Source: a virus (Duplodnaviria; Heunggongvirae; Uroviricota; Caudoviricetes). From it: a stretch of DNA of 5,594 bases. The notes under the pieces are model-generated. The model did no database searches. It had not been told where the DNA came from and saw only the letters and a program-made list of their open reading frames with translations. Location: the IMG/VR virus record IMGVR_UViG_2663762627_000005, positions 1-5,594 of that record; one strand, 5' to 3'. This document shows positions 1-5,594 of the stretch, piece by piece. Every line of letters starts with the position of its first letter. Position 1 is the stretch's first letter. The position numbers and the translations under genes are program-made.

Positions 1-441
1 GATTACGAAATTATGCCGCCTTTTCGCCAGTTGTCGCGCCGCACGGTGCTGCTCACACCAAAAGAATCTACCTGAACGATCAAGCGCACGGTTTTTTATC
101 ATCTCAGGCTGGTTTTTAATCCCCATCAGCTCCGGTGCTAGTGCAGCGGCCAGTTCTGCACCGTTCTGCTGCATAAAATCATGCAGTCGGTTACGGATGC
201 TGATGCGTTGCACCTCCTCATGTGAGCGGATATAGCGACCGGCGGCCTGATTAATCTCCCATTTTTTTATATCGATGAGCTCACGCAGCATCTGTAAGCA
301 GCGGGAACCCGTTGCATTGTCATCTAGCAATAATTCCTGATATTCCTGCATTGCGGCGGCCAGTTCGGTTTTACGGTTCAGCCACACGGTTTTGTTCGTC
401 TGACAGGCGTCACAGGCCTGCTGTAAGGTCAGAGTGGTCAC
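1..441 (-). CDS. psu: Psu-like polarity suppression / capsid decoration protein, 5' part only (147 codons; 3' end lies beyond the left edge)
   Basis: Reverse-strand frame open from GTG at 441-439 to position 1 with no stop. SD-like AGGAGAG sits 7 nt upstream (on the minus strand). Translation (VTTLTLQQACDACQTNKTVWLNRKTELAAAMQEYQELL...KWEINQAAGRYIRSHEEVQRISIRNRLHDFMQQNGAELAAALAPELMG) closely matches P4 Psu as I recall it. Third gene of the sid-delta-psu order. Not in the supplied ORF track because it is edge-truncated and GTG-initiated. Confidence 0.8.
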   Translation of the reverse strand, partial: MTTLTLQQACDACQTNKTVWLNRKTELAAAMQEYQELLLDDNATGSRCLQMLRELIDIKKWEINQAAGRYIRSHEEVQRISIRNRLHDFMQQNGAELAAALAPELMGIKNQPEMIKNRALDRSGRFFWCEQHRAARQLAKRRHNFVI

Positions 442-457
442 GGGTTGTCTCTCCTGA

Positions 458-703
458 TTAATGGCAGAACGGCGAGCTGTAGCAGCCTTTTACCCGACGG
501 GGTGCCACGGGGGCTGTCGGCACCGGCGCGGGTTTCTCATCGACGACCGGCGAACGTATCACTTCAAAGATGGACTCATGCGTTTTAAATGTCGCCGAGC
601 AGTGCACATTCTGGCACTGCAGGTAACTCTCTTTGACGCTGTCAGACATATAGCGGCTGGTGCGAACGTGTGCCGCCGTGCGGCAGAAAGGGCAGCGCAT
701 CAT
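458..703 (-). CDS. delta: Ogr/Delta-family zinc-finger late transcription activator (81 aa)
   Basis: ORF MMRCPFCRTAAHVRTSRYMSDSVKESYLQCQNVHCSATF... carries the Cys4 pattern C-x2-C-x22-C-x4-C and strong similarity to P2 Ogr (MFHCPLCQHAAHARTSRYI...QCQNVNCSATF). Its ATG overlaps the stop of the upstream gene (ATGA, translational coupling). Confidence 0.88.
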   Translation of the reverse strand: MMRCPFCRTAAHVRTSRYMSDSVKESYLQCQNVHCSATFKTHESIFEVIRSPVVDEKPAPVPTAPVAPRRVKGCYSSPFCH

Positions 704-1437
704 GACAATAACCCCCGAGCCTTCAGGTCAGCTTCACGTTCCTGCATTTTTTCCTGCCAGACTTTTCGCTGAACGGGAGTGGCCGCAACGTCATGCTCCA
801 TATGCGGCAGCGTGGAGGCCGACAGTCCTGTTTTAAACAGCACCGGTTCATCGGTCAGACGGATATCGCAGCCTTTCACCGCCTGCTCAAGTCGGTCTTT
901 CACCTGCTGCATAACGGCCTGTTCTGGCTGGATATAGCCCTGATGCCCGGTGGTATTGGCAAGCGGGTTATTAAGAACCAGTATGTTGAGTTTCATTGCC
1001 CTGACCAGCGCGCTACAGGTATCACGCAGGGCAACATCGAGCTCATGCTCTGCATACTGGCTGAGGACGCTGTAATGTGCCTGACGGTACGCTCTGGCCG
1101 TCCGGTCACAGACTCCCTTAAGGCTGTCCAGCTCAAAAGACAGAACCTCAGCCATATTGTCACATTCCTGCGCCAGTTCCCGCCGTGCCACGCGCGCCAG
1201 ATGGCGTTGTTTCAGCTCGTCGGTAACGACAGCACCACCGGCACGAAAGGCGGCGCGCCATGCGCCGGAATCATTGCCGTTTTCCTGCTCCAGTTCATTT
1301 TTTTGCGTTTGCACCTGGCTGATGGCCGTCGTGGTTTCATCCATACGGCTGGCATTGGCGAGATGCGCCGAGCGGGCAGTCTCAAGGCGTTCCATTGCAG
1401 GTTTAAGGTAGTCGGGAATAACAGCGGTCTGAGTCAT
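700..1437 (-). CDS. sid: Sid-like protein (capsid size determination / external scaffold), 245 aa; assignment by synteny and size
   Basis: First gene downstream of the Delta-type promoter box, followed by delta and psu as in P4. The ATG at 1437-1435 is preceded by GAGGAGA with a 6-nt spacer; the longer track ORF (to 1503) has no SD and would start inside the promoter. 245 aa is close to P4 Sid. Sequence identity to Sid not verified. Confidence 0.6.
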   Translation of the reverse strand: MTQTAVIPDYLKPAMERLETARSAHLANASRMDETTTAISQVQTQKNELEQENGNDSGAWRAAFRAGGAVVTDELKQRHLARVARRELAQECDNMAEVLSFELDSLKGVCDRTARAYRQAHYSVLSQYAEHELDVALRDTCSALVRAMKLNILVLNNPLANTTGHQGYIQPEQAVMQQVKDRLEQAVKGCDIRLTDEPVLFKTGLSASTLPHMEHDVAATPVQRKVWQEKMQEREADLKARGLLS

Positions 1438-1469
1438 GTCGGGTCTCCTCTTCGTTTCAATCTGAGGAG

Positions 1470-1528
1470 ATTCTGCCGCGCCAGACACAACAACACGATT
1501 CATTGGCGTTGTGGCAAAAATGACACAA
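1470..1528 (-). promoter_or_regulatory. Psid-like late promoter: TGT-N12-ACA dyad (1511-1528) plus candidate -10 CAGAAT (1475-1470, minus strand)
   Basis: Exact TGTggcaaaaatgacACA at 1511-1528. The dyad centre is about 55-57 bp upstream of the predicted start site and about 80 bp upstream of the sid ATG, the geometry of Ogr/Delta-activated P2/P4 late promoters. Confidence 0.6.
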
Positions 1529-1613
1529 ACAGACCTTAAAACCCGGCTGGCCAGAGAAAGGTCTCAGGAAACCCTTACTCACTGTTTGTTTTTTTACTAA
1601 TAACTATTCACTA

Positions 1614-1708
1614 CTGTTCACCTTAAGAAAAAAGATAAGTAATACAGTTAATTAAAGGGTGAACAGTTGAAGGTCTGACTGTTCACCGTCTGTTCACCAC
1701 TGTTCACC
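1614..1708. repeat. Cluster of five CTGTTCACC repeats (P4 type I iteron core TGTTCACC); crr-like alpha-binding region
   Basis: Direct copies at 1614-1622, 1679-1687, 1690-1698 and 1700-1708 (the last three phased at 11 and 10 bp), plus an inverted copy GGTGAACAG at 1658-1666. The octamer TGTTCACC is the alpha-protein binding iteron of P4 ori and crr. Confidence 0.7.
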
Positions 1709-1790
1709 CTTCTGTTTTTCTCTGCCGATACCTTTAGACTTTATTTCGATTAAAAATCAAAAATATATAACTAAAAGAAATAGAAATTGC

Positions 1791-1844
1791 TGCATTGTAA
1801 TGCAGTGATTTGCATCTGTTTGCCAGCGTTTGCCTTTGTTTGCC
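1791..1844 (+). promoter_or_regulatory. Candidate operator/PLL-region elements: perfect palindrome TGCATTGTAATGCA and three GTTTGCC direct repeats phased at exactly 10 bp
   Basis: Palindrome at 1791-1804. GTTTGCC at 1818-1824, 1828-1834 and 1838-1844. Lies 130-180 bp upstream of the vis/alpA start, with an AT-rich tract (1740-1790) just upstream. Confidence 0.4.
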
Positions 1845-1973
1845 ATAGCGAAAAGTCAATGTTTGTTTCCACGAAAATCTCACATGACCTGAGGAAAAAT
1901 ATAGACATAATAAGGAGCTACCCGAAGCCGGACGGACACGACCGGCACCGTATGGACTTTATGAGGTAGCCCG

Positions 1974-2240
1974 ATGCACACCGCTTTTTCTTCCCCGTCT
2001 TCTGCCCCTGCCGCGCCGCTGATGCCGGTCTCTGACGCCGTTCATGAGCGTTTTATTCGTCTGCCTGAAGTGATGCATTTATGCGGCCTGTCTCGTTCGA
2101 CCATTTATGACCTCATCAGCCGGGAAGCTTTCCCGAAGCAAATCTCCCTCGGCGGTAAAAACGTGGCGTGGGCGCAGTCTGAAATCACCGCATGGATGGC
2201 GGATCGCATTGCCGAACGTAACCGGGGTTATGACGCATGA
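1974..2240 (+). CDS. vis: AlpA/Vis-family small DNA-binding regulator (88 aa), MerR-like HTH
   Basis: ATG at 1974 with GAGG 7 nt upstream. The protein contains [50 protein letters not shown], characteristic of prophage AlpA/Vis/excisionase-like regulators. Same size (88 aa) and position as P4 vis (orf88) as I recall. Confidence 0.85.
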
Positions 2241-2788
2241 TGATGACCGTTCAGCAAACAGCCCCTTTTTCTGGCTTGCTTCTTTTCATCGTTTCCAGGT
2301 ATAGTTTTCCCGCTGCCGCAAAATCGGCAGCCGGGCGTAGGAACCCGAGTTACTTATTGGCGACACCAGACGCGCCATGCGTCTTTTTTTACGTCGTTGC
2401 TCAGGCACACCCATTTTCCGGGCTGTGGTGCTTATACCTTAGCCCCTGTCAGATAATGGTGGTCCGGGCGGGGCAGCCTTCGGGCTGGCCGGTTTCCAAT
2501 AAGGCCGGTATTCCTACCCCCGTTCGGGTCACCACCCATGAGCGTAGGAACTCCGGTGGTGGCAATTACCGCTACTTATTGGAGGTTGCCGCTATGGCTA
2601 CGACCCTCACCCTGCCACACCCGCAGTTTGTCTTTGTGTTTGCCGCCGTTCGTCGCGCAGACCGTAAACCCCGTATCTGTATGCTTCGCACCGTTGCCGG
2701 TGATGAACACGCTGCACGTCTTTCCCTCGTTCGCGATTATGTCCTCTCGTTCGCTGGCCGTCTGCCGGTTGCGGAGGTGTGCGCATGA
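2237..2788 (+). CDS. eta: Eta-like long ORF (183 aa) whose terminal part is kil; starts with three consecutive ATG codons and reads through seqA, the CI-like RNA and seqC
   Basis: About 119 codons stay open across a region that is clearly an RNA regulatory locus, in frame with kil. The start overlaps the vis stop (ATGA) and is followed by ATGATG. This matches the P4 description of eta as a nested ORF beginning upstream of PLE with three possible start codons. Whether it is translated is untested. Confidence 0.45.
2276..2305 (+). promoter_or_regulatory. Sigma70-type promoter, PLE-like: -35 TTGCTT (2276-2281), 18-bp spacer, -10 TATAGT (2300-2305)
   Basis: Good hexamers with correct spacing. 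Placed just upstream of seqA and the CI-like RNA and just inside the eta ORF, as expected for the constitutive early promoter of a P4-type left operon. Confidence 0.55.
2335..2361 (+). promoter_or_regulatory. seqA-like target of the immunity RNA (GTAGGAA ... CTTATTGG)
   Basis: GCGTAGGAACccgagttaCTTATTGG is complementary in two blocks to the seqB segment of the downstream RNA (CCAATAAG ... TTCCTAC at 2496-2517). Confidence 0.65.
2368..2390 (+). terminator. Intrinsic-terminator-like hairpin (AGACGC / gccat loop / GCGTCT) followed by a T7 tract
   Basis: 6-bp stem at 2368-2373 and 2379-2384 with a T run at 2384-2390, immediately downstream of seqA in the leader. Orientation-specific: there is no U-tract on the other strand. 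Confidence 0.4.
2455..2537 (+). ncRNA. cI: CI-like immunity RNA (about 80 nt) carrying seqB; boundaries approximate
   Basis: A terminal helix can form between GGUGGUCCGGGCGGGG (2458-2473) and CCCCCGUUCGGGUCACCACC (2517-2536). Internal hairpin CAGCC-UUCG-GGCUG (2474-2488). The seqB segment CCAATAAGgccggtaTTCCTAC (2496-2517) is complementary to both seqA and seqC. P4 CI RNA is a processed leader RNA of about 79 nt. Confidence 0.6.
2541..2585 (+). promoter_or_regulatory. seqC-like target of the immunity RNA, overlapping the kil Shine-Dalgarno
   Basis: AGCGTAGGAAC (2541-2551) and CTTATTGG (2575-2582) repeat the seqA blocks. The GGAGG SD of kil is at 2581-2585, so CI/seqC pairing would occlude the kil ribosome-binding site. 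Confidence 0.6.
2594..2788 (+). CDS. kil: Kil-like small protein (64 aa), first translated gene downstream of the PLE-like promoter
   Basis: ATG at 2594 with GGAGG 8 nt upstream. 64 codons ([64 protein letters not shown]). P4 kil is 65 aa at the same position. Function inferred from position only. Confidence 0.6.
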
Positions 2789-3012
2789 GACACACCACCA
2801 TTACTGCCCGTGACCTCGAATGCCTTGAACATATGCGCAACGTCGGTCAGCTCGTCAGCGAACTGATGCAGGTGCAGGACTGTGCCACTGTTCGCCGTGA
2901 CCCGGCGCAGCAGTTACAGCTCACCTCCGTGATTTACCTTATGACCGCCCAGCTCGACGGCATGGTCGAACGCTGCAATCAGCACTGGCTGACCGGGGAG
3001 GACAACGTATGA
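2785..3012 (+). CDS. Hypothetical small protein (75 aa from ATG 2785; the track's GTG 2779 start gives 77 aa)
   Basis: GGAGG at 2773-2777 is 7 nt upstream of ATG 2785. The ATG overlaps the kil stop (ATGA). No recognisable motif. Occupies the slot where P4 carries small left-operon genes such as eps. Confidence 0.6.
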
Positions 3013-3329
3013 AACAGCCATTACCGCCCGTATTACGCGCCGCGCTCTATCGCCGTGCAGTGGCCTGTGCCTGGCTGACCCTGTGCGAACGCCAGCACCG
3101 TTACCCGCGCCTCACCCTTGACGCGCTGGAAAGCGCCATTGCTGCCGAGCTGGAGGGCTTCTACCTGCGCCAGCATGGAGAGGAAAAAGGTCGCCAGATT
3201 GCCTGTGCACTGCTCGAAGATTTAATGGAAGCCGGACCACTGAAAGCTGCCCCGTCGCTGTCCTTCCTCGGGCTCGCGGTGATGGATGAACTTTGCGCCC
3301 GCCATATCACCGCACCGGTACTGCACTGA
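3009..3329 (+). CDS. Hypothetical protein (106 aa), translationally coupled to the upstream ORF
   Basis: GGGGAGG at 2995-3001 is 7 nt upstream of ATG 3009. The ATG overlaps the upstream stop (ATGA). The ORF ends 14 nt before the primase start. No recognisable motif. Confidence 0.65.
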
Positions 3330-3343
3330 GGGAGAAAATAACA

Positions 3344-5440
3344 ATGAAAATGAACGTAACGGAAACCGTAAAACAGGCGTGCGGTCACTGGCCGCGTATT
3401 CTCCCGGCGCTGGGTGTGAAGGTGATTAAAAACCGGCATCAGGCCTGTCCGGTGTGCGGCGGCTCTGACCGCTTTCGCTTTGACGATAAAGAGGGGCGCG
3501 GGACGTGGTACTGCAATCAGTGCGGCGCGGGTGACGGGCTTAAGCTGGTCGAAAAGGTGTTCGGTGTAAATCCGTCTGAGGCCGCCCGGAAGGTGAACGC
3601 CGTCACCGGTAATCTGTCGCCGGTTGCCCCGGAAGCGATTGCGGCCGCAGAAGCCGGAACCGATGCCGACCTCCAGGCGGCGGCCGCGCTGGCCGTCAGG
3701 CTCATGGAGAAAACCCGCCCGGCCACCGGCAACGCCTACCTCACCCGCAAGGGTTTCCCCGACCGGGAATGTCTGATGCTCACAGCCATACATAAAACCG
3801 GCGGCGTGACGTTCCGCGCCGGTGATGTGGTTGTCCCGCTGTATGACGATACCGGGGCGCTGGTTAACGTTCAGCTTATTAATGCTGATGGTCTCAAACG
3901 CACCCTGAAAGGCGGTCAGGTCAAAGGGGCATGTCATATCATCGAGGGGCAGAAACAGCCCGGAAAACGCCTGTGGATTGCGGAGGGTTATGCGACCGCG
4001 CTCACCGTGCATCAACTGACCGGCGAAACCGTCATGGTGGCGCTGTCCTCCGTGAACCTCCTTTCTCTGGCGAGCCTTGCCCGTCAGAAGTCCCCGGCCT
4101 GTCAGATTGTCCTCGCCGCCGACCGTGACCTTAACGGCGACGGCCAGAACAAAGCCGCAGCGGCCGCAGGAGCCTGCGAGGGCATTGTTGCCCTGCCACC
4201 GGTGTTCGGTGACTGGAATGATGCGTTTATAGAAAAAGGTGAGGAAGCCACGCGGAAAGCCATTCATAACGCCATCCGGCCACCGGCACAAAGTCCGTTC
4301 GACACCATGAGCGAGGCGGAATTTACCGCCATGAGCGCCAGCGACAAGGCGATGCGGGTGCATGAGCATTACGGCGAAGCGCTGGCTGTGGACGCGAACG
4401 GCCAGCTTCTGTCCCGCTATGAAAACGGCATCTGGAAAAATATCCCTGCCGCCACTTTTTCACGAAATGTTGCTGATTTATTCCGGCGCGTGCGTGCCCC
4501 GTTCTCGTCGGGGAGAATCACCTCAGTGGTGGAGACGCTGAAGCTGATTATTCCTCAGCAGGAGGCACCGGCGCGCCGTCTGATTGGTTTTCGCAACGGG
4601 GTACTTGATACCCAAAGCGGCCTGTTCAGCCCGCACAGTAAATCACACTGGCTGCGCACGCTGTGCGACGTGGATTTTACCCCGCCGGTGGAAGGGGAAA
4701 CGCTGGAGACCCACGCGCCAAACTTCTGGCGCTGGCTCGACCGTGCCGCCGGTGGCAGACCGGAAAAACGCGACGTGATACTTGCCGCGCTGTTTATGGT
4801 GCTGGCGAACCGCTACGACTGGCAGCTCTTTCTCGAAGTCACCGGTCCCGGCGGAAGCGGTAAAAGTATTCTCGCCGAAATCGCGACCCTGCTCGCCGGA
4901 GAGGATAACGCCACGTCAGCCGATATCGACACACTGGAAGACCCGCGCAAGCGCGCATCCCTGACTGGTTTCTCGCTAATCCGTCTGCCTGACCAGGAAA
5001 AATGGAGCGGTGACGGGGCAGGACTCAAAGCCATCACCGGCGGCGATGCGGTCTCAGTTGACCCGAAATACCAGAACCCGTACTCAACACATATTCCGGC
5101 GGTGATTCTGGCCGTGAACAATAACCCGATGCGCTTCACTGACCGCAGCGGCGGTGTGTCACGCCGCCGGGTGATTATTCATTTCCCGGAGCAGATTGCC
5201 CCGGAGGAACGCGACCCGCAGCTCAGGGATAAAATTGCGCGCGAGCTGGCCGTTATCGTGCGCCAGCTTATGCAGAAATTCAGCGACCCGATGGCAGCGC
5301 GCACTCTGCTCCAGTCGCAGCAGAACTCCGATGAAGCGCTCAGCATCAAGCGTGATGCTGACCCGACGTTTGATTTTTGTGGCTATCTGGAAATGCTGCC
5401 GCAGACCAACGGGATGTTGGTAATGGTGCCAACTTACTGA
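3344..5440 (+). CDS. alpha: P4 alpha-type primase-helicase, C-terminus apparently replaced by IS1-derived codons (native codons end near 5418)
   Basis: Start ATG 3344 (MKMNVTETV...) with GAGGGAG upstream; the track's earlier ATG 3293 lies inside the preceding gene. Zinc-ribbon CPVCGG...WYCNQCG, primase EGYATA motif, TOPRIM-like AADRDLNGDG, and Walker A GPGGSGKS (about 4844-4867). The last 7 codons and the stop (5420-5440) lie inside the IS1 terminal inverted repeat. 699 aa versus about 777 aa for P4 alpha. Confidence 0.88.
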   Translation: MKMNVTETVKQACGHWPRILPALGVKVIKNRHQACPVCGGSDRFRFDDKEGRGTWYCNQCGAGDGLKLVEKVFGVNPSEAARKVNAVTGNLSPVAPEAIAAAEAGTDADLQAAAALAVRLMEKTRPATGNAYLTRKGFPDRECLMLTAIHKTGGVTFRAGDVVVPLYDDTGALVNVQLINADGLKRTLKGGQVKGACHIIEGQKQPGKRLWIAEGYATALTVHQLTGETVMVALSSVNLLSLASLARQKSPACQIVLAADRDLNGDGQNKAAAAAGACEGIVALPPVFGDWNDAFIEKGEEATRKAIHNAIRPPAQSPFDTMSEAEFTAMSASDKAMRVHEHYGEALAVDANGQLLSRYENGIWKNIPAATFSRNVADLFRRVRAPFSSGRITSVVETLKLIIPQQEAPARRLIGFRNGVLDTQSGLFSPHSKSHWLRTLCDVDFTPPVEGETLETHAPNFWRWLDRAAGGRPEKRDVILAALFMVLANRYDWQLFLEVTGPGGSGKSILAEIATLLAGEDNATSADIDTLEDPRKRASLTGFSLIRLPDQEKWSGDGAGLKAITGGDAVSVDPKYQNPYSTHIPAVILAVNNNPMRFTDRSGGVSRRRVIIHFPEQIAPEERDPQLRDKIARELAVIVRQLMQKFSDPMAARTLLQSQQNSDEALSIKRDADPTFDFCGYLEMLPQTNGMLVMVPTY

Positions 5441-5594
5441 TTTAGTGTATCATGGTGTTTTTGAGGTGCTCCCGTGGCTTCCATCTCCATCAGTTGTCCC
5501 TCCTGCTCAGCTACTGAAGGCGTGGTGCGTAACGGTAAAAGTACTGCCGGACATCAGCGCTATCTCTGCTCTCACTGCCGTAAAACATGGCAAC
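5419..5594 (+). mobile_element. IS1 insertion sequence, left end (terminal inverted repeat GGTAATGGTGCCAACTTACTGAT) and start of insA; continues beyond the window
   Basis: 5419-5441 matches the IS1 terminal inverted repeat apart from a few variant positions, followed by the characteristic TTTAGTGTAT...GGTGTTTTTGAGGTGCTCC leader and insA. Confidence 0.9.
5474..5594 (+). CDS. insA: IS1 InsA (transposition repressor / N-terminal transposase part), 5' portion only
   Basis: GTG start at 5474. Translation (V/M)[39 protein letters not shown] matches the InsA N-terminus (zinc-finger CPSC...CSHC). ORF runs off the right edge. Confidence 0.9.

Follow-up and report, generated by a model that had tools for sequence, protein, structure and literature searches.

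Gene content of the locus

The analyzed window, a 5,594-bp stretch of DNA (positions 1 to 5,594 of the IMG/VR virus record IMGVR_UViG_2663762627_000005), contains most of a P4-like satellite prophage (Table 1). The immunity region was delimited by three Rfam families, c4-a1b1 (2299–2351), isrK (2312–2389) and the C4 antisense RNA (C4/CI, 2452–2539), and a small open reading frame (ORF) lies between the immunity RNAs and ORF106. RefSeq places a 183-aa 'Icd-like' protein (window 2237–2788) across the DNA of these RNAs. The best complete-genome relatives of the element were found in Escherichia coli AF10 and a sister isolate (99.6%) and in E. coli PSS-16 (99.9%), where it sits between ssrA, together with an integrase gene, and ypjA.

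Compared with typical P4-like satellites of Enterobacterales, such as those inserted at ssrA beside ypjA, the window has the same core genes (psu, delta, sid, alpA/vis and alpha) in the same order, but its copy is degraded, with alpha cut by IS1 and psu fused to yehI. Window positions 1–59 are 100% identical to the chromosomal gene yehI (DUF4132) and are joined to the middle of psu through ~5–12 filler bases, with no insertion sequence at the junction. The relatives, by comparison, have a complete psu and the ssrA location. The left side was truncated by rearrangement and both ends of the satellite are broken, consistent with a prophage that is decaying and rearranged. One extra C, at window position 71, is present beside the yehI/psu junction.

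Table 1 Features of the window, in window coordinates (strand '.', none assigned)
Feature	Coordinates	Strand	Basis
psu, truncated; 3' third replaced by yehI sequence (window 1–59)	72–440	−	Comparison with relatives
Ogr/Delta-like zinc-finger activator	458–703	−	Pfam Ogr_Delta, E = 5e-21
sid (capsid size determination), diverging from ori	700–1437	−	RefSeq annotation of 99.6–99.9% identical relatives; P4 sid position
TGT-N12-ACA dyad upstream of sid	1510–1527	.	Conserved in P4 and all relatives
Iteron slot 1, degenerate type 1 repeat TATTCACT	1605–1612	+	Two mismatches to consensus; paired in alignment with the first of the type 1 repeats annotated in P4 ori
Iteron slot 2, TGTTCACC	1615–1622	+	Exact; aligned with P4 type 1 repeat 9396–9403 (record positions)
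AT-rich 35-bp spacer between slots 2 and 3	1623–1657	.	25–28% G+C; ~90% identical to P4
Iteron slot 3, inverted (GGTGAACA on the + strand)	1658–1665	−	Exact; corresponds to the sole inverted type 1 repeat of P4 ori
Iteron slot 4, TGTTCACC	1680–1687	+	Exact; aligns to P4
Iteron slot 5, TGTTCACC	1691–1698	+	Exact; aligns to P4
Iteron slot 6, TGTTCACC	1701–1708	+	Exact; aligns to P4
Very AT-rich stretch right of the iterons, inside the span homologous to P4 rep_origin	1740–1800	.	12.5–20% G+C
TTTGC(A/C)-type repeats with ~10-bp spacing, in the place of the P4 'ori type 2 repeats' but differing in sequence	1809–1848	+	Repeat scan; alignment to P4
vis/orf88 (AlpA family), first gene of the leftward operon	1974–2240	+	Pfam Phage_AlpA, E = 3e-20; 88 aa, as P4 ORF88
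P4-type immunity RNA region	2299–2539	+	Three Rfam matches above gathering score
ORF106 (Cnr-like, DUF5375)	3009–3329	+	92% identical to P4 ORF106; Pfam DUF5375
alpha primase-helicase, residues 1–691 only	3344–5418	+	83% identical to P4 alpha residues 1–692
Left end of the IS1 interrupting alpha	5419–5594	+	Junction analysis; IS1 family matches

A helically phased repeat array between sid and vis

Scanning of the window located five exact copies of the octamer TGTTCACC in 5,594 bp, all of them within 1615–1708 (1615+, 1658−, 1680+, 1691+ and 1701+). Only 0.14 copies are expected per window, and five or more were obtained in 0 of 200 dinucleotide-preserving shuffles. The nine-base form CTGTTCACC is also exact at all five sites, which gives the array a span of 1614–1708; under a uniform model, 0.003 copies are expected in these 95 bp, with a Poisson probability of at least five copies of ~2e-15. 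The cluster of four direct copies and one inverted copy described in the first-pass annotation is thus borne out by the counts, as is the 10–11-bp phasing of three direct copies, the three rightmost iterons being 11 and 10 bp apart. Local enrichment, which that annotation had proposed as a check, was likewise seen, with five copies in the array against just three in the chromosomal flank (18.3 kb) of a related genome.

When two mismatches were allowed, a sixth, degenerate copy, TATTCACT, was found at 1605–1612 (nine-base form CTATTCACT at 1604–1612), 10 bp to the left of the first exact copy; it was absent from the earlier annotation. With this copy counted and at 10.5 bp per turn, the centers of all six sites fall within ~2 bp of one helical face. 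The array is non-coding, as no ORF of at least 40 aa was found to overlap 1583–1733.

The array corresponds slot for slot to the phage P4 origin

A search of a phage collection with window 1400–2300 returned P4 as the sole match. By blastn, window 1487–2285 aligned to positions 8719–9533 of the P4 reference (GenBank X51522; E = 1e-80), the single matching place in P4, which carries the annotations 'origin of DNA replication' (rep_origin 9086–9809), 'ori type 1 repeat (x6)' and 'ori type 2 repeat (x3)'. As annotated in the record, the P4 type 1 repeats run + + − + + + between sid and ORF88, with start-to-start distances of 10, 43, 22, 11 and 10 bp, and the six sites of the window have exactly this orientation and spacing. 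The array is also sited as in P4, between the divergent genes sid and vis/orf88, confirming its assignment to the divergent control region, and the gene order psu-delta-sid, ori, vis-immunity RNAs-orf106-alpha agrees with that of P4. The octamer TGTTCACC is itself the P4 'ori type 1 repeat' of the record annotation, in agreement with its earlier reading as the P4 alpha site; that P4 alpha binds the type 1 iterons is something that we take from the GenBank annotation and established knowledge.

P4 ori, which lies between sid with its promoter Psid and orf88 (vis) with the promoter PLL, has in common with the window the octamer, the six slots with their orientation and spacing, the 35-bp AT-rich spacer, the T-tract beside the array and the neighboring genes. 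In pairwise alignment, the two sequences are nearly identical from the T-tract (1579) through slot 6, whereas both sides are far more diverged (flanks ~55–75% identical). Differences from P4 are found in slot 1, which is TGTTCACC in P4 but TATTCACT in the window, in the three type 2 repeats of P4, whose place TTTGCC-type repeats take in the window, and in the cognate alpha encoded in cis, which is whole in P4 but truncated here. Within the T-tract bordering the origin (1583–1596), the window has one extra T (1589) relative to AF10, a homopolymer length variation.

On the strength of its homology, its architecture and the conservation across the family described below, the array is very probably the replication origin (ori, type 1 iteron array) of a P4-like satellite prophage and a slot-for-slot ortholog of P4 ori. 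The P4-type ori is already known as a feature class, and what the window contains is a canonical origin in a defective P4-like prophage. The sid–vis intergenic region of P4-like prophages is thereby correctly labeled as an origin; the assignment has little significance beyond annotation and opens no new question on replication or satellite biology. Iteron-type plasmid origins likewise have phased initiator-binding repeats beside AT-rich DNA, but their initiators are of the Rep/pi/RepA type, whereas the initiator here is a primase-helicase with a C-terminal winged-helix domain. P4 also needs a second distant cis site, crr, unlike iteron plasmid origins in general.

The array had been labeled 'crr-like' in the first-pass annotation, which would make it a crr-type site, that is, the second cis-required P4 region that binds alpha and loops to ori. 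The octamer is indeed common to crr and the array, and in P4, ori and crr are each targeted by alpha, as the record annotation and established knowledge indicate; however, location, repeat structure and iteron order all differ. P4 crr (X51522 4291–4590) lies directly downstream of alpha and is built from two direct repeats of 120 bp, each carrying an iteron pattern of its own. The window array is instead located 1.6 kb upstream of the alpha start, not adjoining the alpha 3' end; its iterons follow a different order, and no long direct repeat (~120 bp) was found in window 1440–1980. The comparison with P4 ori and crr that had been recommended gave alignment to ori alone. Moreover, in the 99.6–99.9% identical relatives AF10 and PSS-16, a second iteron cluster just 3' of alpha aligns to both P4 crr repeats, and this cluster is the genuine crr (positions 18430–18730 of the AF10 locus, L003). 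With position, layout and alignment all against it, crr identity was rejected, and we attach next to no probability to it. Both sites thus belong to the element family. The window carries ori, and crr, which was seen in the relatives AF10 and PSS-16, would lie beyond IS1 and so past the end of the window, which falls inside IS1.

Alternatively, the main function of the repeats might be not that of an origin but that of operators, at which Vis, Delta or some other regulator would control transcription from Psid and PLL, the divergent late promoters. Such a role would suit their location between divergent sid and vis, ~80 bp from the dyad at 1510–1527, which, from knowledge of P2/P4 late promoters, is presumably the Ogr/Delta-type activator site of the Psid late promoter. 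That site, however, is a distinct motif (TGT-N12-ACA), and the homologous repeats are annotated as origin repeats in the P4 record. The octamer is also found at crr, a place remote from promoters, as would suit an initiator site and not an operator. A consensus scan of 1400–2000 for sigma-70 promoters and terminators gave nothing in or beside the array and one weak promoter-like match at 1884–1911, no more than expected by chance. We consider the operator role very improbable and retain the assignment as a replication origin.

Conservation of the six-slot layout across P4-like elements

A scan with Sid as the query, using one genome per species, yielded 12 loci from Enterobacter, Citrobacter, Kluyvera, Scandinavium, Tatumella, Mangrovibacter and one contig labeled Vagococcus. 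Wherever upstream DNA was present in these loci, exact copies of TGTTCACC occurred at the same offsets from the sid ATG as in the window and P4. In an alignment of 12 elements (Escherichia, Enterobacter, Citrobacter, Scandinavium, Tatumella, Mangrovibacter and others), all six slots were present in 12 of 12 with the consensus CT(G/A)TTCAC(C/T), and the layout is kept in P4-like elements of at least six enterobacterial genera. The slots are the best conserved part of the intergenic region, with a mean pairwise identity of 0.92 and 71% invariant columns among the 12 elements, compared with 0.54–0.80 for spacers and flanks and 0.36 for the type-2 zone. Within this range, the spacer at 1623–1657 reaches 0.77, while the right flank at 1709–1800, which holds the AT-rich stretch 1740–1800, is poorly conserved at 0.54.

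Slot 1 is TATTCACT in 8 of the 12 aligned elements; therefore, the 'degenerate' copy of the window is the norm and the perfect copy of P4 the exception. Many natural slots also end in T and not C. A simple signature for P4-type origins in genomes is provided by the six phased T(G/A)TTCAC(C/T) slots and the fixed distances between them. The contig labeled Vagococcus sp., a Firmicute (L015, NZ_JBQPOM010000030.1), contains a complete P4-like sid-ori-alpha region with enterobacterial-type iterons, and the label is likely to reflect assembly contamination or mislabeling.

Recent loss of the origin-binding domain of alpha to IS1

Alpha-derived sequence stops at 5418, after codon 691 of 777, and the frame runs through seven IS1 codons before a stop, which gives a predicted product of 698 aa. 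By Pfam analysis, truncated and intact alpha alike contain the Zn ribbon, Toprim, D5_N and DUF5906, whereas Pox_D5 (670–768) was detected in the intact PSS-16 alpha only and is absent from the alpha of the window. P4 alpha residues 671–770 constitute the origin-binding winged-helix domain, the structure of which has been solved (PDB 1KA8). The earlier proposal that alpha had lost its C-terminal DNA-binding part to IS1 was accurate: the cut falls after residue 691 of 777 and the Pox_D5/1KA8 domain is gone. As predicted from its sequence, the window protein would keep the primase and helicase modules without the domain that reads the iterons, and by analogy with P4 alpha, we infer that this loss abolishes specific iteron binding.

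The origin-binding domain of the intact PSS-16 alpha is 90% identical to that of P4, and in other genera the identity is 75–79%. In Mangrovibacter phragmitis, a second, degraded alpha origin-binding domain (L013 221–460; 60% identical, with an in-frame stop and a deletion) lies a few kilobases from an intact alpha.

The PSS-16 element shows six differences in 5,354 bp and encodes the full 777-aa alpha. Because an element that is 99.9% identical has an intact alpha, the IS1 event must be recent, which also accounts for iterons without decay; their integrity therefore says nothing about retained function or selection. The description of the sites as possibly 'orphaned' consequently holds in cis, where the origin-binding domain has been lost, with the qualification that the disruption is very recent.

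AF10 carries IS1 as a simple insertion, bounded by a 9-bp duplication of the target (CGGGATGTT), and the alpha remnant and crr follow. The IS1 of the window and the AF10 IS1A (L003 17354–17528) are inserted at the same nucleotide of alpha in the same orientation and are different isoforms, with 15 differences over 176 bp (5419–5594) that start at the fourth base of the inverted repeat. Private differences number 5, 4 and 1 in the three copies of the element and none is shared, so that their relationship is star-shaped. The presence of two IS1 isoforms at one site can be explained either by two independent hot-spot insertions or by IS1 gene conversion. A more speculative reading, to which we assign a very low probability, takes the two isoforms at one alpha nucleotide, where the origin-binding domain has its boundary, as recurrent, perhaps selected, silencing of satellite replication that leaves the origin intact; if true, the element could be replicated only by the alpha of another satellite and would be the dependent of a dependent. 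Removal of the DNA-binding domain of an initiator by IS1 adds one more route of decay for satellite prophages.

Proposed initiation and possible use of the origin in trans

The following scheme for the intact element takes alpha binding, crr looping and firing from P4 biochemistry. Alpha would combine primase and SF3 helicase domains with a winged-helix origin-binding domain at the C terminus and would bind the six helically phased T(G/A)TTCAC(C/T) sites, as well as the iterons of the second cis site, crr, downstream of its own gene. It would open neighboring AT-rich DNA, for which the candidates are 1623–1657 (25–28% G+C), a candidate unwinding or loading region, and 1740–1800 (12–20% G+C), and would then prime and unwind to give bidirectional theta replication, with the ORF106 product (Cnr in P4) modulating alpha. 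In the window copy, the origin is intact in sequence and would not be fired by its own initiator, since a truncated alpha that cannot find the origin could not start the replication cycle. Such an origin could respond only to alpha from another P4-like element.

Continued use of this kind would mean that the origin or its binding sites are served by alpha from another P4-like satellite, either already resident or newly arriving, so that the orphan replicates or titrates alpha while that satellite is active. Alpha-like DNA is present in 2,766 of 5,426 complete E. coli genomes, at up to six places per genome, a count that agrees with the presence of P4-like satellite prophages in about half of E. 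coli genomes given by Moura de Sousa and Rocha (2021; PMC8628076). Among P4-like lineages, the iteron core is conserved, as is the origin-binding domain (75–90% identical across genera), which makes cross-recognition by the alpha of another satellite plausible, and the sites themselves are undamaged. The intact sites, however, are accounted for by the recent IS1 insertion and are not evidence of selection. No second alpha-like gene was found on the chromosome of either of the two closest complete genomes that carry the IS1-disrupted element, where the disrupted gene is the single alpha-like place. Established knowledge further holds that P4 replication needs crr in cis too, the window element is truncated on its left at mid-psu, and an integrated, decaying prophage gains nothing obvious by firing. 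We judge continued use in trans unlikely. As to the binding in trans suggested in the first-pass annotation, the alpha of a second satellite is plausible in principle given the conserved domain and iterons, whereas a protein of the helper phage found no support.

Repeats and palindrome flanking the iteron array

In P4, three 10-bp type 2 repeats of the CTTTAAGTGG type lie on the vis side of the origin. Repeats of this type are absent from the window, where the TTTGC(A/C)-type repeats take their position, and GCCAACGTTTGCCA-like versions occur there in other genera. As the P4 type 2 repeats are absent from the other sampled natural elements too, they look P4-specific and not family-defining. 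Co-variation between Vis/AlpA and the repeats comprises just two classes (P4 versus all others), with one exception (L013). The Vis/AlpA recognition region shared by these elements, unlike that of P4 Vis, hints that the repeats at the type 2 position may be Vis sites. Between the AT-rich stretch and the TTTGCC repeats, window 1784–1811 forms a 12-pair imperfect palindrome, AAATTGCTGCATTGTAATGCAGTGATTT, which is kept in Citrobacter and Enterobacter elements (L006 and L009) and not in P4, and which may be an operator.
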